In this document: in pieces, positions 3 through 13,948 of the stretch
How positions within the stretch are numbered: the stretch's first letter is position 1
Layout: the number at the start of each line of letters is the position of its first letter
Notes under the pieces: generated by a model
What the model was told of the DNA's origin: nothing
Databases searched by the model: none
Seen by the model: only the letters and a program-made list of their open reading frames with translations
Assembly: GCA_019057375.1 (NCBI GenBank)
Contig: DXJF01000100.1
Span: 1-17,935 of the forward strand
Reading direction: 5' to 3'
Length of the DNA stretch: 17,935 nt
Source of the DNA: Candidatus Heimdallarchaeota archaeon
GTDB taxonomy: Archaea; Asgardarchaeota; Heimdallarchaeia; Heimdallarchaeales; Heimdallarchaeaceae
Translations under genes and position numbers: made by a program

Positions 3-818
3 GCAAATTCATTCTTAGGAATTCATCCAGTTTATGGAGTAGCAGGATTCAAGAGTGATGTTGGGCAAACAGTCCTATCTGATGGAGTGATTACCCTTGC
101 ACCTGGATTAACCTCAATATTTGCAGGAGCCGCTGAAACTTATCAACTGGTTGTTTCAAATATGGATTGGGGATTAGTTCTACCAAAGACTCAAAATAGA
201 AGACCTGCATTTCCACAACCAGTACTTGATATTGATGTAAGTGTTGAATTTATCATTCCAACTGATGCACCTTGGGAATTAGAAATTACCATAACCATCA
301 CAAATATTGGAGATGAAAGAACACACATAACTGCTATTCAATTCTATAACGCTACTGAAATGCAATTATTAAGAAAAATCACAACAGAAGGATATACAAC
401 AAATGCAACCCACTTAGGTGTTGGAGTAATACTTTTTGAAGGAATAACACTCTTGCCTGGTGAAGCTGTTACTTTAACTATGCGATGGCTCTTCTTAACG
501 AGTAATGGATGTTACATTCCTAGTATCATCGTGGTCTATGATAGTAGATTCGCAAGCGATGTGGGAAATGACGTTGTAGATACAGCTGCAGAAGCAGATG
601 CTCCTCTAATGTATGCATTAGATGGATCAGCTCAAGATGAAGAAGATTGGGAAGATTACGGTGAATCAACTCAAACAGGTTCTTCCGCTGGTGCTGATGT
701 ATTTACTGGTGGAACTCATACTCGAAGAATAGGTTCATACGATATGGTCTTCTGGTCAATCAGTGCAATATTTGTTACTGCAGTTGCTACTAGCATTAGA
801 AAGAAACTTAAAAACTAA
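3..818 (+). CDS. 5'-partial cell-surface protein with Ig/CARDB-like beta-sandwich, acidic linker and C-terminal TM anchor plus basic tail
   Basis: The frame stays open upstream of the track's GTG at 87 back to the window edge (3: GCA AAT TCA TTC...), so the gene starts outside the window. Beta-rich segment LEITITITNIGD...LLPGEAVTLT, N-x-T sequons (NAT twice), C-terminus SYDMVFWSISAIFVTAVATSIRKKLKN. Confidence 0.7.
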   Translation, partial: ANSFLGIHPVYGVAGFKSDVGQTVLSDGVITLAPGLTSIFAGAAETYQLVVSNMDWGLVLPKTQNRRPAFPQPVLDIDVSVEFIIPTDAPWELEITITITNIGDERTHITAIQFYNATEMQLLRKITTEGYTTNATHLGVGVILFEGITLLPGEAVTLTMRWLFLTSNGCYIPSIIVVYDSRFASDVGNDVVDTAAEADAPLMYALDGSAQDEEDWEDYGESTQTGSSAGADVFTGGTHTRRIGSYDMVFWSISAIFVTAVATSIRKKLKN

Positions 819-850
819 TTTTTTCTTTTTTCTTTTTCTTTTATTTTTAT
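819..850 (+). terminator. Oligo-T archaeal-type terminator after ORF1
   Basis: TTTTTTCTTTTTTCTTTTTCTTTTATTTTTAT starts directly after the TAA at 816-818. Confidence 0.7.
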
Positions 851-864
851 CCTGTAATAGCTTG

Positions 865-873
865 TTTTAAATA
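865..873 (+). promoter_or_regulatory. Putative TATA box of the SMC operon
   Basis: TTTTAAATA ends about 35 nt upstream of the ATG at 908, in the only intergenic gap. Confidence 0.45.
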
Positions 874-907: not shown

Positions 908-3898
908 ATGGCAACTACAGTTGTAACCAATTCAGATTTATATGTTTTTGATAGTCTTATGTTATATAATTTTAAGATGCATAAGTCTACTGAATTATGT
1001 CTGTCTGAAGTTCCAATTGTTGTTATTTCAGGTGCCAATGGTAGTGGCAAAACACAGATTTTAGAAGCTCTGATTATGGCTATTGGTCATGTTCCTAATA
1101 GAGTCTCATTGAGTACGTATAAAGAGATTATAGGCCCCTTTGATAACTACTCCCAAATCCAGCTTAAACTGAATAATCCCCAACTTAGTGATAACAGAAT
1201 ATTCACAACTTCCGATCCTGATCTCATACCATTTATCGAGAAAGATTATTTTGTGATCGATGTGAAAATAAATCGCGAAGGAAATATCAGAAGAAAAATA
1301 ATTGATACGAAAGGTAAGGGTATAACCGTTACTAAAAGACAGATTCAGAATTTAATGAAAAACATAGGGATATTCCAGGATACTATGCTCAATTTCACTG
1401 AAGAAGGATATCTCAGCTCTTTTGCTGATGGTTCTCCTCATAAGAAATTAGATAGTTTATTAGTTGCAACTGGTTTGAAAGAAATATTTACTAGCTATAT
1501 TAATTCGAAGAAAAAAGTAGAAGAGAAGAAAAGGGAGCACTCTCCTTTAGTTATGCAGTTAGAAAAAGAGGAGAGCAAATTAGAAAGACTTAGGGAGAAC
1601 TTTGAAAGGATACAGAAAAAAAGAGAACTCATACAACGATATGAGGTTCTTGAAAGAGAACTAGTCTGGTTTAATGCAATTGAAAGTCAAAATCAATTTG
1701 AGGATGCAAACCAGAACTTAACCAGCAAAAAGAAAGAACTCAAAGAATTGGAAAAGAAACTTAATATTTCTTCGATTGATCAAGATAATTTACGTAAAGA
1801 GGTAAGAAAAGCAGAAGAAAATCTAGTAGATAGAAAAACTAGTATGAGGGAATTATCAGATCAGAAAAATAGGTTGGAAGGTCAGAAAGAAGAAAAAAAT
1901 CGAATGGTTCAGTCTTCGAAATCTCAGATAGCAAATATCGACTTGAAACTAAGCGAATTTGTGACCATTCAAACAGATGAAGGTTTTTCACAGAAAAAGC
2001 AATTACAGCAACAATTAGATGATGTTAATACACGTATTTTACAATTGAACAATGAGTTGCAGACTAGCCAAATTAATTTGAAAGACAAAGCAACTGAAGA
2101 AGACAATATAAAACAAAGAATATATGAAAGATCTCAGCTTTATGGAGAATTGTCTGACTATGAGAGGAAATTAATAAAAGATTGTATATTGTATAAGGAA
2201 AGAATACAAAATTCAGATTTTAAAAAGGAGATCATCGGACCTATATATGAGATCATCTCTATAAAGGAAGGTTTTGAAAATTATACAGATGTTGTAAAAG
2301 CATCTCTTGGAAGATATCTCTTTGGCTTTGTTGCTACTACTCATGCAGCTTATAAAGAAGCAAAAGACATTTACGATAATATTTTCCCAACCTATAAACC
2401 AAACTTCACAGTAGGGCGAATTTTAGAGGAAGAAAAAGGACCCAAACCTGATTATCTTACCAATCAATCATTACAGAGTAAACCCGAAGGCATAATTGAT
2501 TTTGCAGTTAATTTAATTGAAGCTCAATTTCAAGTTAAGTTATATCTGGTAAAGTTTGTAAGAATACTATTAGGCACTCCATCTTTACCTCCAAATCTTC
2601 TAACAGACTATGCAAAGCAATATAAAACCAACATTTTGACAACTGATTGTAGCAGCTTTTATCTTTCTCAAGAAGCATTTTCAAGACCCCCAAGAAGATA
2701 CAATGTAAAACTTAGTTTAGATCTCAATAAATACCAGTCAATTGAACGAATAAGAGAGCAACTACAATTGGTACTATTTGACATTGAAAAGATTACCGAA
2801 GATAAAATCAGAATTACTAGAAGTTTAGCTGAATTAGAAAACAGAAAACGAGAGCTAGAAAACCAGTTGAAACCTTGGAAAATGGGAACTGATGAAATTG
2901 AAAATGAATTTCTTAGGTTACAGCAAATCAAAAGTGCAGCAGAAATTTTAGTAAGAACCGAAACTGAAAACCTTTCTAAACTTGATGTGGAGATTACAAA
3001 GATTACTCATAACATAGTAGATATTGAGAAGGTTGTTACAGAACAGCAAAAACAGTATGATGAGATTAGAAAGAAACTTAATCATTTAAACGAAGAGATT
3101 AAGGAACTTTCAACAAGAAGAGACAAAAACCTTAAGTTGATAGATTTTCTTGAGATAGAGTTTTTAGATTTAAAAGAAGCATATGAAAATCTGAATAAAG
3201 AAGCAAAGGAGAAAGGAGAACCTCCTGAAAGTATTCGTTCAGATAAAGAAGATATTGCTTCCGAATATAATAAAGTTAAAGGACAGTTAGAATTATTAGA
3301 AATTACTCCAGAAGTATCACAAGATAGCATCGAAAAACAAGAACAGCAAGTTAGCATTTTGCAAGATGAAGTGAAAAATAATGAAATTCATCTAAAAAAT
3401 CTTAAGGAAGATTTAGAAAAGAGAATCAATGAATGGGAAGGAGGTCTTCATAATATTGTAGACCATCTGAACAAGATGCTGAATTTGCTTCTTCAAGATA
3501 TTTTTGTGAATATATCTATACAAATTCGAAATTATAATGATGAGAAGAGTGCAGGATTACATATAGAAGCTGAAACCAAGGGAGATAATAGGAGATATAG
3601 GCAGCTTTCAGGGGGAGAAAAAACACTGTTAGCTCAAGCAATCATTTTAGCTCTTCACATGATAAATCACTCTCCAATTCATGCAATAGATGAATTTACT
3701 CAAAAGCTTGATAAGAGAAATAAAGCTCTTGCTTTTTCCATGGCTTTAGCAACCTATAAAATCTCGAAGGAAAATAGGATAATTACTCCTCAATTCATTC
3801 TAATAACTCCCTCTCTTGATGATGTAGAACTCTCTGAAGAGTTTGCTCACAAAGTCTTGATTGAGAGCAAAGTAAAAGCTCCTGAGGTGAAAACATGA
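908..3898 (+). CDS. smc5/6: SMC5/6-family SMC ATPase (996 aa; head, coiled coil, hinge, coiled coil, head)
   Basis: Walker A GANGSGKT (1031-1054); Q-loop region NFTEEG; two long heptad-rich arms; central hinge starting IIGPIYEIISIKEGFENYTDVVKASLGRYLFGFV (from 2231); signature LSGGEKT (3605-3625); Walker B/D-loop AIDEFTQKLD; C-terminal QFILITP (3791-3811) with Pro in place of the H-loop His, as in Smc5/Smc6 and unlike Smc1-4, prokaryotic Smc or Rad50. Confidence 0.88.
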   Translation: MATTVVTNSDLYVFDSLMLYNFKMHKSTELCLSEVPIVVISGANGSGKTQILEALIMAIGHVPNRVSLSTYKEIIGPFDNYSQIQLKLNNPQLSDNRIFTTSDPDLIPFIEKDYFVIDVKINREGNIRRKIIDTKGKGITVTKRQIQNLMKNIGIFQDTMLNFTEEGYLSSFADGSPHKKLDSLLVATGLKEIFTSYINSKKKVEEKKREHSPLVMQLEKEESKLERLRENFERIQKKRELIQRYEVLERELVWFNAIESQNQFEDANQNLTSKKKELKELEKKLNISSIDQDNLRKEVRKAEENLVDRKTSMRELSDQKNRLEGQKEEKNRMVQSSKSQIANIDLKLSEFVTIQTDEGFSQKKQLQQQLDDVNTRILQLNNELQTSQINLKDKATEEDNIKQRIYERSQLYGELSDYERKLIKDCILYKERIQNSDFKKEIIGPIYEIISIKEGFENYTDVVKASLGRYLFGFVATTHAAYKEAKDIYDNIFPTYKPNFTVGRILEEEKGPKPDYLTNQSLQSKPEGIIDFAVNLIEAQFQVKLYLVKFVRILLGTPSLPPNLLTDYAKQYKTNILTTDCSSFYLSQEAFSRPPRRYNVKLSLDLNKYQSIERIREQLQLVLFDIEKITEDKIRITRSLAELENRKRELENQLKPWKMGTDEIENEFLRLQQIKSAAEILVRTETENLSKLDVEITKITHNIVDIEKVVTEQQKQYDEIRKKLNHLNEEIKELSTRRDKNLKLIDFLEIEFLDLKEAYENLNKEAKEKGEPPESIRSDKEDIASEYNKVKGQLELLEITPEVSQDSIEKQEQQVSILQDEVKNNEIHLKNLKEDLEKRINEWEGGLHNIVDHLNKMLNLLLQDIFVNISIQIRNYNDEKSAGLHIEAETKGDNRRYRQLSGGEKTLLAQAIILALHMINHSPIHAIDEFTQKLDKRNKALAFSMALATYKISKENRIITPQFILITPSLDDVELSEEFAHKVLIESKVKAPEVKT
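3884..3890 (+). promoter_or_regulatory. Shine-Dalgarno GAGGTGA for the 256-aa gene
   Basis: Archaeal-type SD 4 nt upstream of the ATG at 3895; ATGA start/stop overlap with the SMC gene. Confidence 0.75.
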
Positions 3899-4665
3899 CT
3901 GATCAAGATATTCTAGATGAAAGTTCTGATACAATTTCAATCTACATAGAAGAAAATAGAGAATGGGTTGAGAACATATTTCAATTGGTTTTCGAGCTCA
4001 AGAGGAAATATGGTAGATCGATAAGAAAGAAAGAAATTGTGAGACTTCTAGAATCAGAGGAAGATCGGTCCAAAGTTTCTGAGGCCTACCTATATTTGCA
4101 GAATAAAAAAGAAAATCTGTTAGATTCTGCTCTTTATGAAGACTTTATCAAAATGAATGATTTAAGAGAAAATGATTTTCTTGAAAAGCTGCTTTATCCT
4201 CAAGAAAGGTTAAAAACCTTTGTTGACAAAGTAAGAAGCTTATGTGTTCCTATAACTTATTTTTCAGGAACAACCCAAACATCATATGAAGAACCAATAA
4301 AAAATCTAACTGAAAAAATCATTGAACTGGAATCAAGTGAAAATATTGAGCTTTTTATGAAAAAATACAAAGGTTTCTTGAAAAGATTATCGAGCAATTT
4401 CCTAGATAAAGGTGAAATTTTGAATATTGAGAGTACTATTAAGGACAAACTGATAGGTAAGAGAATCAAGAGAACACAAATTAACACTCTTCTAACATCT
4501 TTAGAAGCAGAGATTCTATCCAAGATGATTAGCGAGAAAAAGATTCATGTCATTTTAGAGAATGATGTATTGATTTTTCAAACTGAAATAAAGGATGAAG
4601 AATCTGATGTTGTTTCTAGTTCAGTTCTCCTCTCACCTAAGAATTTCAAAGAAGAGAGTGACTAA
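3895..4665 (+). CDS. Probable kleisin-like (Nse4/ScpA-position) subunit of the SMC complex
   Basis: ATGA overlap with SMC, strong SD. Helical N-terminus, charged middle, and a C-terminal helix-helix-strand-strand segment (LLTSLEAEILSKMISEKKIHVILENDVLIFQ) compatible with a kleisin winged helix. The call rests mainly on gene context and size. Confidence 0.5.
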   Translation: MTDQDILDESSDTISIYIEENREWVENIFQLVFELKRKYGRSIRKKEIVRLLESEEDRSKVSEAYLYLQNKKENLLDSALYEDFIKMNDLRENDFLEKLLYPQERLKTFVDKVRSLCVPITYFSGTTQTSYEEPIKNLTEKIIELESSENIELFMKKYKGFLKRLSSNFLDKGEILNIESTIKDKLIGKRIKRTQINTLLTSLEAEILSKMISEKKIHVILENDVLIFQTEIKDEESDVVSSSVLLSPKNFKEESD

Positions 4666-4667
4666 TC

Positions 4668-5273
4668 ATGGAAGAAAATCATCTGGAACAATCCATTGAT
4701 TCAAATGAGATTGCTGAAGAAAATAATTTTTTACCTTCTTCTATTTCAGATGAAGAAAAAGGAGAACTATTTAGAGAGTTAACTACGATTTTATCTAGAA
4801 AATGGATAAAAGACAAAGTGACTGTTTTTGGTTGTTCTGAACTTGATTTATTATTAGCAACACGTTTTGATGTTCAAACCTTACGTGAAACAATTGAAGA
4901 ATACAAATCATTTGTGCAAATTTTGGGGCTAAATGTAATAGATTATGACATGGAAGGTGAAAAATGGTATTGCTTAAGATCCTCTAATTATGCACCTTCT
5001 GATTTACAGTCATCTGAATTAATAGTTCTGGGTACTATAATTGCTTTTCTAGAAAGTGATAAACAAAAACCTATAACTACAGAGAAGATTAAAGAAAAAT
5101 TGGTAGTCACTGGAAGGATGAAGGAATACCTAGTTGATAATAGTTTGAGAATATTAACAAGACTTGGCTATATCAGGAAGAAACAGAATGAATGGGAATA
5201 TAACTATCGAACCTACATTGAGTTTGGGGATGAAGAGAAAGATAAGATCGTAGAGGAGTTCAGAAGGATTTGA
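4668..5273 (+). CDS. KITE-family tandem winged-helix protein (Nse1/Nse3(MAGE)/ScpB/JetB-like)
   Basis: Two WH-like units: ...VQILGLNVIDYDMEGEKWYCL, then SSELIVLGTIIAFL...ITTEKIKEKL...DNSLRILTRLGYI...WEYNYRTYIEF. The ending resembles the GYI...R-x-x-x-E end of Nse1/MAGE WH-B. Starts 2 nt after the previous stop. Confidence 0.72.
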   Translation: MEENHLEQSIDSNEIAEENNFLPSSISDEEKGELFRELTTILSRKWIKDKVTVFGCSELDLLLATRFDVQTLRETIEEYKSFVQILGLNVIDYDMEGEKWYCLRSSNYAPSDLQSSELIVLGTIIAFLESDKQKPITTEKIKEKLVVTGRMKEYLVDNSLRILTRLGYIRKKQNEWEYNYRTYIEFGDEEKDKIVEEFRRI

Positions 5274-5725
5274 AGGAACAAGAAGCACTTTATTGCTTTA
5301 TTCGTTGTACTTTCTGTAATCAGATGAAAACTCTGAGAGATGCTGCTTTAGAAGGGTGGGAAGTTTGTGATCGATGTCAATTAGTATTTTGCAATGAATG
5401 TAAAAAAGACAATGAAGAAGAAGAATTATGTCCAGGGTCAGTCTATACCACAAAACATACTGCTAGTTTTGGACTTCTTCCTATAGAACAAATAATAGAA
5501 ACAGCAAGTAATATCGAGAAACAACCTAAAGAAAGCAAGTTTATTTCCAAGATATTTTTTGAAGATGAAAAAAAGAAAATTGAAATTCTCAAAAGCAGTA
5601 AAAAGAAGAAAGAACCCGCTGATTTTAGTATCGTAAGATTCCGAGAAGAACAATGGAGAAAATTCGGTACTGTTTTAGTCAAAAGGAAAGATGGTAAATT
5701 TCTAACCTGGGGTCAATTAGAATAA
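5270..5725 (+). CDS. Stand-alone Cys-rich Zn-finger protein (RING/PHD-like, Nse1-type spacing) with basic C-terminal region
   Basis: TTG start overlapping the upstream TGA (TTGA, 5270-5273), SD-like GAGGAG at 5253-5258. Motif C13-x2-C16-x16-C33-x2-C36-x4-C41-x2-C44-x9-C54(P)-x8-H63 (5306-5458). Confidence 0.7.
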   Translation: MKEQEALYCFIRCTFCNQMKTLRDAALEGWEVCDRCQLVFCNECKKDNEEEELCPGSVYTTKHTASFGLLPIEQIIETASNIEKQPKESKFISKIFFEDEKKKIEILKSSKKKKEPADFSIVRFREEQWRKFGTVLVKRKDGKFLTWGQLE

Positions 5726-8788: not shown

Positions 8789-10276
8789 TTACTTCTTCTT
8801 TTTCCGAATTAAAACCATTGTAGCTACAAATATTGATGTAATGAAGACAGGGATCATACCAAAAGCATTTGTATCTTCTGGAGTCAACATCCCAAGTATA
8901 GTATTATACTTCGTTTGAGCAAAAGTTCTCCATTCTCCATCCTTTGTTGAAGAAAAACCTGCATCAGTTTGATATTGCGTATTCCAGTCTAATGACTCCT
9001 GTAAGGTCATTCCAGGAACTCCGAGATCTTCAACTAGTTCATTGAAATATGTAATATTTATATCTCCATCTCTTAATTGTGTTACCATCTCACCCCAAGT
9101 ATTTCTTAGCAGTGTGTGAGGTTGAGTGATTGTGTTGTGGAAATAGTAAATTGTTGTATCTAAATTTGCAGTAGCAAGAGTTTCGTTGAAGTCTATACCT
9201 ATATTAGCCAGTGTTTCATTGAATAACGTATATGAATCAGGGAAATTTTGTCCATATGGAGTGTGAAAAGCGGATTCATTAACTGGTAATCGGTCTATAC
9301 CTGGAGTTAACCAGACAGATTGACCTTCTGGGGTATTTACATATGTTAGAAACGCTGCAGCAGCAGCATAATCATCAACATTGATACCCATAGCGATAGG
9401 ATCACCATTGACAATTGATTGACCTTCTGGAATTATGTACTCACAATCAGGATTCTCTCCCATGGCTATTATTCCATAAAAGTCGATTGTCATAGCAATT
9501 CCTACCTCACCGCTAACTACAGCAGCTCTTGTGGCTACTGATCCTGTATACATTCCTGAATTAGCACCCATTCTTGTCAGAATCGACCATCCTTCTTCCC
9601 AACCAAATGCTTGGAGGATAATTTGGTAAATTCTTGTATTGGATGTGGTTAAAGGTGGATCACCCATACTAATAGCTCTAACACTAGGACTAATGTAATA
9701 AACTGGACTTGCTAATTCTTCCCATACGGTTGGAACTGGAAGAGCATGAGTGTCTAAGAATTCATGATTAACAGTAAAACCAAAAGAAGAGATAGCATTT
9801 GCTGCCCAAATAAGACTTCCATCTGGTGCAAAAGACTTCATACTTGCACCTGCTAATTCAGCAGGAACACTGTCGTTAATAGCAACAAATAAAGCGGCAT
9901 CAGTTACAGGGTCAATGTGTTTTAACAAACCCCAATTATCCATGGTGTTGAACAATGCTGGTCCTCCACCCCATGCAAGATCCACAGATTTCGAAGGATC
10001 CTCTAGAAGCTTCTTCCATCCGTCATCTGTTGTAGCTGATCTGAAATCAATTGATGTTACACCTGCTGCAGCTGCTTCTGGTGTAGCCAAGAAAGCAGCT
10101 TCAAATGCATTTGTTAGAGTTGTATCATGTCGAGTAACAACGACAAAGTTTACAGCATTTAGTTCTGGATTTGATGGTGTAGTAGTATCTACTTCAGCGC
10201 TAATCATAAAAACTGCTGAACCTGCTAATAAAGACGCAATTAAGAAAACTAGAATAACTGTTTTTTTTATTTTCAT
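8789..10276 (-). CDS. ABC transporter extracellular solute-binding protein (AfuA/FbpA-like, SBP_bac_6 type), N-terminal signal peptide and C-terminal TM anchor
   Basis: MKIKK plus hydrophobic signal; motifs DLAWGGGP, SSFGFTVN, PTVWEELASP, GWEEGWSIL, VVSGEVGIAMTIDFY, PEGQSIVNGDPIA, FLTYVNTPEGQ; tail AFGMIPVFITSIFVATMVLIRKKKK. Adjacent to the cognate permease. Confidence 0.88.
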   Translation of the reverse strand: MKIKKTVILVFLIASLLAGSAVFMISAEVDTTTPSNPELNAVNFVVVTRHDTTLTNAFEAAFLATPEAAAAGVTSIDFRSATTDDGWKKLLEDPSKSVDLAWGGGPALFNTMDNWGLLKHIDPVTDAALFVAINDSVPAELAGASMKSFAPDGSLIWAANAISSFGFTVNHEFLDTHALPVPTVWEELASPVYYISPSVRAISMGDPPLTTSNTRIYQIILQAFGWEEGWSILTRMGANSGMYTGSVATRAAVVSGEVGIAMTIDFYGIIAMGENPDCEYIIPEGQSIVNGDPIAMGINVDDYAAAAAFLTYVNTPEGQSVWLTPGIDRLPVNESAFHTPYGQNFPDSYTLFNETLANIGIDFNETLATANLDTTIYYFHNTITQPHTLLRNTWGEMVTQLRDGDINITYFNELVEDLGVPGMTLQESLDWNTQYQTDAGFSSTKDGEWRTFAQTKYNTILGMLTPEDTNAFGMIPVFITSIFVATMVLIRKKKK

Positions 10277-12375: not shown

Positions 12376-13401
12376 ATGAAAAGAAAATATATCTTTAGTT
12401 TAATTCTAATTGTGGGAATGATAGCCGGCATGACTACAACAAATGCTTATACAACTAGTATTGATTTCTCCGGAAATAAAATCGCATTTGATATTTCTCA
12501 TGGAGGTTTTCACACAACAGAAGCTGATCTTGCTCCCATAATAGGGAACCTTACAGCTGCAGGTAACGAAGTTATCTTCATAAATGAAACTTGGGGAATA
12601 CCTGATGATGTAGACGCTTTATTCCTAACACAACCAGAACTCATGTATACAGCTACTCAACTCGCTGATATTTACTGCTGGTTCCACGGAGGAGATAAAT
12701 TACTCTGGATTTCAGGAGATTCTGATTTTGGTGGTTACTTCAATCCATGGTCAAGCAACGCAGTTTTAGAACAACTTGGTGCTATAGTCAGATTTGCTGG
12801 AGTTTCAATTGAAGATCCAGACAACAATGATGGATCAGCCTATCGTGTTGCTGCAACTGAAATTGGTGTTGGAGATGCAGTATATGATGATCTAGCTATT
12901 GAGCTAACAACTGGTATGGATGCTGGTGTAATCTTTCATGGTCCTACAGCAATTATGGCACACAATGGATATGATTACAGAGATTTAAGATATGGAAAAT
13001 CAGTCTTTCCACTAAGAGTTAAGGTGATTATGACTTATAGTGGAAGCGCTATTGCACTTGACTCTGATACAAGTGATGGTGTTCTCGATTATTACGCAAA
13101 CGTAACAGGAGATATCACAAAGGAAGGTTTCTATCCAGCTATTTGTTATGAAAACGTTACTGAACTGGGTAGTCACATAATTGTTTCAGGTGAATCTATC
13201 TATACAAACTACAAATTTATGTATGGACAAAACACCGAACAAGGAGAATACAATGATGGTACTCACTATGGTCAATTGTTAGTTAATAACATACTCAACT
13301 ACTTCTTAGAAACTCCTCCAGATGCAACTTCATATGCATTTGCTCTACTTCCATTAGCAGTAATTGGTGTAATATACGCTGTTTCCCGCCGAAAGAAATA
13401 A
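12376..13401 (+). CDS. Secreted, C-terminally anchored surface protein with a GATase1-like/GIFT (GldG/IFT52, DUF4350-like) domain
   Basis: Signal MKRKYIFSLILIVGMIAGMTTTNA; KIAFDISHG...NLTAAGNEVIFIN...DVDALFLTQP...GGDKLLWISGD; IIVSGESIY; tail SYAFALLPLAVIGVIYAVSRRKK; sequons NLT, NET, NVT. Confidence 0.65.
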   Translation: MKRKYIFSLILIVGMIAGMTTTNAYTTSIDFSGNKIAFDISHGGFHTTEADLAPIIGNLTAAGNEVIFINETWGIPDDVDALFLTQPELMYTATQLADIYCWFHGGDKLLWISGDSDFGGYFNPWSSNAVLEQLGAIVRFAGVSIEDPDNNDGSAYRVAATEIGVGDAVYDDLAIELTTGMDAGVIFHGPTAIMAHNGYDYRDLRYGKSVFPLRVKVIMTYSGSAIALDSDTSDGVLDYYANVTGDITKEGFYPAICYENVTELGSHIIVSGESIYTNYKFMYGQNTEQGEYNDGTHYGQLLVNNILNYFLETPPDATSYAFALLPLAVIGVIYAVSRRKK

Positions 13402-13426: not shown

Positions 13427-13534
13427 AGTTTAAAGTAAGTTCTGGTGAGGTAATATTTTTGAGGAGATGTTATCTCATCTAAATTGTTAAATATCGCTTT
13501 CTTAAGTGATAATTGTAATAAACGCGTGAGATTC

Positions 13535-13948
13535 ATGGTCATCATCTGGGGTTACACACCTTCTGAAGCTCTACCAAATAATAAAATCATTGGAGAAAGA
13601 GTAAACGTAATCAAACAGTTGTTTTCTGCTATACTTTTTAAAACTGGAATTAAGGGAATATGTGTAAATCTAGGAGGAATCTCGCAAAAACCTGTTGTTA
13701 AACTAGATTTGGTGATTGATTCTGAATCAATCTATGAAACTAGTTTTTCACCAAAAAGGGCGAGAAAATATTCATTCGAATTAGATGAGATAATTTTTCC
13801 CAAAACAAAAATAGAGGTTGTGATGTCTGTTTCCAATGGATCAGTTGAAGTTGCTATTTCTCCTATTGGAACAGGAATGGGATTTCAAAAACAGGATGAC
13901 GAATTTGTTCCAACAAATCACTTTCCTTTAGGTGTAATTATTTCTTAG
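13535..13948 (+). CDS. Hypothetical 137-aa protein, predicted all-beta
   Basis: Fills the gap between terminator and GNAT, with a 4-nt convergent stop overlap with GNAT. ATG 13535 is preferred over TTG 13484. No recognised motif. Confidence 0.55.
   Translation: MVIIWGYTPSEALPNNKIIGERVNVIKQLFSAILFKTGIKGICVNLGGISQKPVVKLDLVIDSESIYETSFSPKRARKYSFELDEIIFPKTKIEVVMSVSNGSVEVAISPIGTGMGFQKQDDEFVPTNHFPLGVIIS

Follow-up and report, generated by a model that had tools for sequence, protein, structure and literature searches.

The four-gene operon and its products

We analyzed a 17,935-nucleotide stretch of DNA (the window: contig DXJF01000100.1, our contig C50) from a Heimdallarchaeaceae genome of 3.47 Mb in 159 contigs that is 89% complete. 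Near its left end, four genes on the forward strand encode a structural maintenance of chromosomes (SMC) ATPase (P0001), a protein with the predicted architecture of a kleisin (P0002), a putative kite (P0003), and a small protein with a predicted RING-type fold and two sets of zinc ligands (P0004, the zinc protein) (Table 1). An earlier note on this DNA had described these genes as tightly coupled, and the coupling is exact in both the list of open reading frames and the sequence: the ATG of the kleisin gene and the stop codon of the SMC gene form an ATGA overlap at 3895-3898, a 2-nt gap separates the kleisin TAA (4663-4665) from the kite gene, and the TTG start of the zinc-protein gene sits on the kite stop codon in a TTGA overlap at 5270-5273. 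The TTG start is backed by a 93%-identical orthologue, P0005, which has Met at the same position. Because the next gene downstream is convergent, the operon ends with the fourth gene. On the upstream side, archaeal terminators typically have a T-rich tract after a stop codon, and the tract at 819-849 is probably such an oligo-T terminator, insulating the operon from the preceding gene. The box TTTAAATA that lies between this tract and the SMC gene is, judged by the archaeal promoter consensus, a candidate for the sole promoter of the operon.

Table 1. Positions, strands, and supporting evidence of the features in the window.
Feature	Position	Strand	Evidence or remark
C-terminal end of a ~1015-aa protein	3-818	+	Weak CARDB/DUF11 Ig-like matches
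T-rich tract	819-849	+	Follows the stop codon (816-818) of the CARDB/DUF11-like gene to its left; read from the sequence
TATA-like box TTTAAATA	866-873	+	34 nt 5' of the SMC ATG; read from the sequence
SMC ATPase, SMC5/6-type by profile (P0001), 996 aa, ATG start	908-3898	+	Pfam SMC_N, family profile
Predicted kleisin (P0002), 256 aa	3895-4665	+	AF2 model, Foldseek, VIA
Putative kite (P0003), 201 aa	4668-5273	+	Sub-threshold sequence matches
Predicted RING-fold two-zinc protein (P0004), 151 aa, TTG start	5270-5725	+	Alignments, AF2, structure searches
ABC permease domain fused to a long N-terminal region, 959 aa	5756-8635	-	LVIVD repeats in the N-terminal region
Solute-binding protein	8789-10276	-	Beside the ABC permease gene
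Transglutaminase-core protein, 556 aa	10476-12146	-	Pfam Transglut_core 3.4e-17; 4.7 kb downstream of the operon
341-aa protein	12376-13401	+	No Pfam match
154-aa protein	13484-13948	+	No Pfam match
GNAT acetyltransferase, 167 aa	13945-14448	-	Weak ESCO1/2-family match (Acetyltransf_13, 2e-4)

P0001 matches the Pfam family SMC_N over residues 16-945 (3.2e-23) and carries a Walker A motif (GANGSGKT, 42-49), a signature motif (LSGGE, 900-904), and a Walker B motif (D928-E929), with G42, G45, G47, K48, S901, G903, E904, D928, and E929 invariant among 12 orthologues from six families. By these sequence motifs, P0001 is an intact SMC family ATPase. The canonical prokaryotic SMC model TIGR02169 scored only 51 bits on P0001, against a cut-off of 729. 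We built a profile (A5) from the 12 orthologues and searched it against all PDB sequences, where it matched human Smc6 (2.2e-49, 171 bits) and yeast Smc6 (1.6e-45, 158 bits) ahead of archaeal Smc (1.8e-30, 109 bits), Smc4 (5e-28, 100 bits), Smc3 (4.1e-23, 84 bits), Smc5 (4e-21, 77 bits), and Rad50 (about 1e-11, about 45 bits); SbcC and RecN were absent among the 60 best matches. This ordering, a ranking of scores and not a phylogeny, supports an SMC5/6-related assignment of P0001 with Smc6 as its nearest relative. In a published tree, the sole SMC of a Heimdallarchaeia genome of the UBA460 family falls in the SMC5/6-related clade (van Hooff, Raas, Tromer, Eme, bioRxiv 10.1101/2024.01.07.573240). 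The earlier note's placement of the SMC outside Rad50/SbcC, RecN, and canonical Smc therefore agrees with the profile scores. Its proposal that an "ITP ending" and the style of the hinge mark the protein as Smc5/6 went unconfirmed: the C-terminal fragment does not part Smc5/6 from Smc1-4, and a search with the last 57 residues returned no match.

An AlphaFold2 (AF2) model of P0002, made with 12 orthologues, contains a helical N-terminal domain (residues 22-117; predicted local distance difference test score, pLDDT, of 80-92) and, toward the C terminus, a winged helix (172-229; pLDDT about 80), with residues 119-168 forming a disordered linker between them. This predicted layout of helical N-domain, flexible linker, and C-terminal winged helix is the kleisin architecture. 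A Foldseek search of 350,542 chains with the model ranked yeast Nse4 first (7qcd_F, E 0.15, probability 0.51), and a further Nse4 chain (7tve_G), JetA, Brn1, and CAP-H2 were in the top 30, all with E values of 0.15 or worse; these scores are weak because a monomer model does not fix how the two domains lie relative to each other. In VIA, 7qcd_F was the sole match covering both domains, with Z 8.9 over 150 residues, in a list where many helical matches also lie at Z 8-10. The kleisin family profile (A2) found nothing in the PDB, including no Nse4 match, and the ESM Atlas search for the kleisin and the Pfam search with P0002 were equally silent. Kleisin orthologues lie between the SMC and kite genes in all loci examined. 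The kleisin fold that had been proposed for the 256-aa protein is thus upheld by the modeled architecture and by the first rank of Nse4, at scores that are weak.

For P0003, the sequence matches point to a kite in a manner that is weak but consistent. P0003 itself matches the Pfam family MksE at 0.033, below threshold, and its C-terminal half is a winged helix-turn-helix of MarR/SarA type (MarR_2 2.5e-6 in family members, SarA 1.5e-4). In the ESM Atlas, archaeal hypothetical proteins (0.92) were followed by MAGE/Nse3 clusters (0.88 and 0.79). The family is narrow, with 63 representatives among 1.84 billion proteins. Comparison of a 36-member kite alignment with the PDB brought up Nse1 at 0.08-0.22, a sub-threshold match aligned on winged helix B, and the family profile A3 gave no Nse3 match in the PDB, only MarR/SarA winged helices. 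Among the 36 members, Pfam matches to SMC_Nse1 were found in 5, to ScpB in 3, to MAGE in 2, and to MksE in 2, all below threshold (best values 0.0037, 0.0014, 0.0011, and 0.0051, respectively); the other matches were to generic winged-helix families and to scattered families hit by single members, leaving kite families as the recurrent specific ones. A published table lists an Nse1/3-related kite in a UBA460-family genome (van Hooff et al.). Of the KITE identity assigned earlier to the 201-aa protein, then, the recurrence of kite families stands, with every individual Pfam and PDB match to a kite family below threshold.

The fourth product, P0004, has eight zinc-ligand positions (C13, C16, C33, C36, C41, C44, C54, and H63) that are invariant within the family in our alignment and are kept across seven families (15 sequences) at 23-35% identity. 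The swaps that occur are conservative only: C16 is His in several families (f6, f7, and f29) and C41 is Asp in f12, where f-numbers denote Asgard families in the surveyed genome set and f1 is Heimdallarchaeaceae. In nearly every sequence a Pro comes directly after ligand 7, forming a CP motif. In many RINGs a hydrophobic residue between ligands 1 and 2 contacts the E2; in the zinc proteins this residue varies by family (F, G, A, V, or E). AF2 modeled residues 10-80 of P0004 with a pLDDT of about 80, and RING, U-box, SP-RING, and ZZ domains dominate the Foldseek and VIA lists for this model, alongside a few other zinc fingers. On re-alignment, all 50 of the top 50 PDB entries were RING, U-box, SP-RING, ZZ, or Rbx. 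The best structural match was RNF4 (2xeu_A; Z 5.4, root-mean-square deviation 2.4 Å, 58 of 64 residues), and Mms21/Nse2 appeared at Z 4.3-4.4, no better than other RINGs. Sub-threshold Pfam matches were seen in a few family members (zf-C3HC4 0.003, zf-RING_4 0.0061, and zf-RING_2 0.018). The model thus places the predicted fold of P0004 in the RING/U-box class, and the eight conserved ligands predict zinc binding. P0004 also has a strongly conserved C-terminal motif (about residues 123-149), which AF2 modeled with low confidence and which had no match in the PDB. Longer or fused forms of the zinc protein, such as a kite-RING fusion, were not found in our search, which is weak evidence.

Shorter paralogues of about 125-131 aa, which match P0004 over residues 11-116 only and are without the C-terminal motif, occur at L035:18105-18482, L037:3021-3413, and L040:15360-15755. 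The neighbor of the f7 paralogue, about 10 kb downstream, is a histidyl-tRNA synthetase gene.

Distribution of the operon and an adjoining ubiquitin-like kit

To map the system we ran two queries, the zinc protein and the kite profile, over 400 Asgard genomes. A P0004 homologue was present in 67 of the 400, and strong kite-profile matches occurred in the same eight families as the zinc protein (f1, f2, f3, f6, f7, f8, f12, and f29); outside these families, where the survey covered 12 genomes from the order of the window and 22 from its class, the only matches were a few weak or partial ones. Every retrieved locus that holds both the kite and the zinc gene has the order SMC, kleisin, kite, zinc protein, in which adjacent genes either overlap or are less than 40 nt apart, and the flanking genes differ by family; the conserved synteny expected in the earlier note is therefore real, with the gene order kept across Asgard families. 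In more distant SMC-kleisin-kite operons (f14, f19, f20, and f28), the kite gene is not followed by a zinc gene. Within Heimdallarchaeaceae the operon is single-copy and present in 27-28 of 30 genomes, and its chromosomal neighborhood is conserved. Ratios of nonsynonymous to synonymous substitution rates (dN/dS) within the genus were 0.04-0.14 for the zinc gene, 0.05-0.14 for the kite gene, and 0.11-0.24 for the kleisin gene, and the zinc gene is under strong purifying selection. Given the recurrence of the tightly coupled order in at least five Asgard families and the purifying selection on genes 2-4, the four-gene arrangement is more than chance.

In our analysis, the strongest clue to function is a dedicated conjugation kit for a ubiquitin-like protein (Ubl) that adjoins the operon in sister lineages, outside the window, and that the earlier note therefore missed. 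Four families (f7, f8, f29, and f12) have orthologous kit genes beside the operon, arranged in one of two layouts. In f7, f8, and f29, the zinc gene is directly followed by a Prok-JAB gene, and this by a ThiF-type E1 gene; in f7 the series continues with genes for proteins of 103 aa and 259 aa, the latter with a weak match to UQ_con. In f12 (labeled Hermodarchaeia/Promethearchaeota), the four kit orthologues lie on the opposite side of the operon, with the 107-aa and 254-aa genes divergent from the SMC gene. The full kit of JAB, E1, a 103-107-aa protein, and a 254-259-aa E2-like protein is thus seen in f7 and f12, and only JAB and E1 were seen in f8 and in f29, where the contig is short. The f12 kit also holds a paralogue of the zinc protein, overlapped by 4 nt by a transglutaminase-core gene. 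Despite this separate kit paralogue, the P0004 orthologue of f12 still lies at the 3' end of the kite gene. The association thus holds up under rearrangement, and we regard this as the best argument for a functional link. The 103-107-aa protein, a candidate modifier (L035:10314-10625 in f7 and L037:4462-4785 in f12), has no Pfam match and ends in ...AQVG, with a terminal Val-Gly instead of Gly-Gly.

Orthologues of the modifier and of the E2-like protein were not found in five Heimdallarchaeaceae genomes (that of the window and four others, two of them closed single-contig genomes), in which only weak JAB paralogues and more distant E1s were detected. The genome of the window does hold several general ubiquitin, E1, E2, and JAB genes elsewhere, with E2s on contigs C97, C102, C21, and C132. 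One cluster, near ESCRT-like genes, consists of a 78-aa ubiquitin-like gene, an E1 gene, and a gene for a 482-aa UQ_con protein (C132:25729-28598 of this genome, G000), and another of an E2 gene, a JAB gene, and a gene for a 367-aa Cys-rich protein (C97:842-3249). These two general clusters are candidate partners for the orphan RING-like subunit.

Canonical SMC was also missing from this family: the TIGR02169 search found none in G000 or in the f1 genomes G015, G016, G011, and G037 (two of them closed), and the same search recovered a canonical SMC at 831 bits in a positive control, the f7 genome G081, which carries the same SMC5/6-like operon. Nor was there a ScpA Pfam match in G000 or these f1 genomes. 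Because no canonical SMC was found in Heimdallarchaeaceae, the SMC5/6-like complex is the only SMC complex found there. Canonical Smc-ScpAB, considered as an identity for the operon, was rejected on these negatives together with the low TIGR02169 score of P0001.

A proposed Smc5/6-type complex and its alternatives

Taken together, we consider it likely that the operon encodes a minimal Smc5/6-type complex with a RING-fold fourth subunit that would dock on the kite/kleisin module and have a role in Ubl modification where an E2 exists. In this model, a homodimer of the Smc6-like ATPase would form a ring that the Nse4-like kleisin closes, with its N-terminal helices on the neck of one SMC and its C-terminal winged helix on the head of the other, and a dimer of the Nse1/3-like kite would sit on the kleisin linker. 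The zinc protein, which the overlapping stop and start codons would allow to be made in step with the kite, would dock on the kite/kleisin module, probably by its C-terminal motif, and there take the role of the Nse1 variant RING in stabilizing the non-SMC subcomplex. With a cognate E2, it would direct Ubl modification of the complex or its neighbors; in lineages with the kit, the complex or nearby chromatin proteins would probably be tagged with the Ubl, and the tag undone by the JAB peptidase. Since no kit Ubl or E2-like gene was found in Heimdallarchaeaceae, the RING subunit may there be mainly structural or may use a general E2.

How much of this picture concerns ligation is the question on which the readings part. 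The zinc protein could be a purely structural SMC subunit, or one that binds DNA or a partner, with no ligase role at least in Heimdallarchaeaceae; its RING fold would then merely stabilize the kleisin-kite module, as part of the function of the Nse1 variant RING does. This reading has, in our judgment, a modest chance of being correct. It accounts for a gene that is still constrained in a family where none of five searched genomes yielded a dedicated Ubl or E2-like gene, it fits the variation among families of the residue at the E2-contact position between ligands 1 and 2, and it has a precedent in the documented structural role of the Nse1 variant RING (PMC8750328). It sits poorly with the JAB/E1/Ubl/E2-like kit that flanks the orthologous gene in four other families, with the near invariance of the CP-motif Pro, and with the general E2, E1, and ubiquitin genes that the genome of the window offers. 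The converse reading, that the zinc protein is the E3 of the neighboring Ubl system and no SMC subunit at all, would make its adjacency to the kite mere operon neighborhood. The position of the zinc gene exactly at the junction of the SMC genes and the JAB-E1 pair in f7, f8, and f29 speaks for this, but we judge it very unlikely, since in f12 the kit is elsewhere with its own paralogue while the orthologue stays after the kite, since in f1, f2, and f3 the zinc gene is still beside the kite (overlapping it in f1) with no adjoining JAB/E1, and since the distribution of the zinc protein tracks the kite subfamily across eight families.

Equally improbable, if not more so, is that the operon is an SMC-based anti-plasmid or anti-virus defense system of the Wadjet/JetABCD or Lamassu kind. 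PADLOC does return generic SMC-like matches for P0001 (LmuB 1.9e-17, JetC 1e-6), JetA is among the weak fold matches of the kleisin, and eukaryotic Smc5/6 is reported to restrict extrachromosomal DNA as well (PMC9458440). Set against this, genes 2-4 have no PADLOC matches, no JetD-like nuclease lies in the operon, and the gene order is SMC-kleisin-kite and not jetA-B-C; moreover, the operon is single-copy, is kept in nearly all family genomes in a conserved chromosomal neighborhood, and encodes the only SMC complex found in the closed genomes, and the Smc6 profile match is far stronger than any of the defense matches.

Several observations weigh against the minimal Smc5/6-type complex that we favor. 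The SMC5/6 assignment of P0001 comes from profile scores and the published tree for a related genome and not from a tree of our own, and the scores behind the kleisin and kite assignments are sub-threshold. For P0004, structural scores are low (Z at most 5.4, Foldseek E at least 0.15), as expected because the zinc domain has 60 residues, and they are still no proof; no Pfam RING model recognizes the zinc domain above its gathering score, and P0004 itself matches none of these families; the last ligand pair is spaced C-x8-H, which is not RING-like; and Nse1 is missing from the top 50 structural matches. The co-occurrence counts overstate the evidence because related genomes are not independent, and they describe a pattern, not a statistical test. 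Our data show the gene structure, the score-based family assignments, conservation, synteny, and selection, whereas homodimer stoichiometry, association of the zinc protein with the SMC complex, and ligase activity are things that we infer. Ligase function in this family is the weakest step because no dedicated Ubl kit was found in Heimdallarchaeaceae.

Smc5/6 is, to our knowledge, the sole eukaryotic SMC complex with built-in ligases. These are the ubiquitin E3 Nse1 and the SUMO E3 Nse2. Why the complex has ligases has long been asked, and the present view of its evolution is that they were added in eukaryotes. A further step, which we put forward tentatively and regard as somewhat doubtful, is that the RING-fold gene, as a "split Nse1", represents the unfused ancestor state from which the Nse1 RING, or the Smc5/6 ligase arm generally, derives, and that an Smc5/6-type complex, either the target of a dedicated Ubl cascade or the director of one, was already present in the Asgard ancestor of eukaryotes. 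If true, the ligase activity of Smc5/6 would be an archaeal inheritance, contrary to the published scenario, and the link between the complex and tagging would predate eukaryogenesis. Four operon proteins and four kit proteins would make a small, bacterially expressible system in which to probe the effect of tagging on an SMC ring, and Heimdallarchaeaceae, with the RING subunit and without the kit, offer a natural contrast in which a structural role would be separable from any catalytic one.

Relation to known systems and neighboring genes

The SMC-kleisin-kite part of the operon belongs to a known class. Such operons have already been described in TACK and Asgard archaea (van Hooff et al.), and the archaeal SMC5/6-related operons (van Hooff et al.; Yoshinaga and Inagaki, PMC8665677) comprise one SMC closest to Smc5/6, an Nse4-related kleisin, and an Nse1/3-related kite, presumed to act as homodimers, the same as genes 1-3 here. 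The UBA460-family genome of van Hooff et al. has one SMC5/6-related SMC and one Nse1/3-related kite, with no canonical SMC, kleisin, or ScpB, the pattern seen here. The difference lies in the kleisin and the fourth gene: no kleisin is listed for the UBA460 family and no fourth gene is given there, whereas here a predicted kleisin and a RING-fold gene are present. The same authors found the Nse1 RING absent from archaeal kites and considered it a eukaryotic innovation. Our literature searches turned up no paper on the fourth gene, and none that connects SMC operons of archaea with RING proteins or Ubl systems. With the three-gene core already published, the RING-like gene is indeed the new element, as the earlier note had anticipated.

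The likeness to eukaryotic Smc5/6 would consist in an Smc6-nearest SMC, an Nse4-like kleisin, an Nse1/3-like kite, and a kite-associated RING-fold module, and the order of kite gene and then RING gene is collinear with the domains of Nse1 (winged helices, then RING). The differences are that one SMC gene and one kite gene stand here in place of paralogous pairs and that an Nse2 arm-binding subunit and Nse5/6 are lacking. Calling the complex complete, as had been done, goes too far: counterparts of Nse2, Nse5, and Nse6 are absent, and Pfam does not recognize the zinc protein as a RING above threshold.

The variant RING of Nse1 is of C4HC3 type, stabilizes Nse1/3/4, and with Ubc13/Mms2 acts as an E3 on Nse4 and Nse3 (PMC8750328). 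P0004 resembles it in that its first four ligands are all Cys, and differs in being a separate gene, in having Cys or Asp and not His as ligand 5, and in ending C-x8-H instead of C-x2-C; on these differences an identity of P0004 as the Nse1 C4HC3 variant RING was rejected. An identity as the Nse2/Mms21 SP-RING was likewise rejected, as P0004 has two full ligand sets and its zinc domain is N-terminal, with no preceding arm-binding helices. The fold searches with P0004 single out neither Nse1 nor Nse2 from among the RINGs.

An operon of Caldiarchaeum subterraneum contains genes for ubiquitin, an E1-like and an E2-like protein, a small RING finger protein, and Rpn11 (PMC5654768, PMC6043591). Compared by description, it shares with the loci of f7, f8, f29, and f12 a small stand-alone RING-type protein accompanied by E1, E2-like, modifier, and JAB/Rpn11 genes. 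The zinc protein described here differs in being tied to an SMC operon, in its extra C-terminal motif, and in the absence of a kit in Heimdallarchaeaceae, and the linked-kit modifier candidate differs in its Val-Gly ending. Smc-ScpAB and the MukBEF/MksBEF/Wadjet systems share with the operon the general SMC-kleisin-kite architecture and appear among the weak matches of the kite family (MksE/ScpB) and the kleisin model (JetA), and they differ from it in the TIGR02169 score, the lack of a ScpA Pfam match in the genome, the missing nuclease subunit, and a gene order unlike jetABCD.

Among the neighboring genes, the ~1015-aa gene whose end opens the window lies upstream of the operon family-wide. 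We considered it as a fifth subunit and rejected this, as unrelated genes occupy its place in other families; because such genes replace it in f7 (a subtilase gene, for example), it is not part of the module. Other genera of the family likewise have the pair of ABC permease gene and solute-binding protein gene close to the operon. A phmmer search with the transglutaminase-core protein of f12 against the genome of the window gave a single match, the transglutaminase-core protein encoded in the window (2.7e-36); as a weak lead, this protein may be a leftover partner of the Ubl kit or a papain-fold peptidase of that system. The 341-aa and 154-aa proteins beyond it show no likeness to Ubl-kit proteins. 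ESCO enzymes acetylate cohesin, and the weak ESCO1/2-family match of the acetyltransferase that follows probably reflects generic GNAT similarity.

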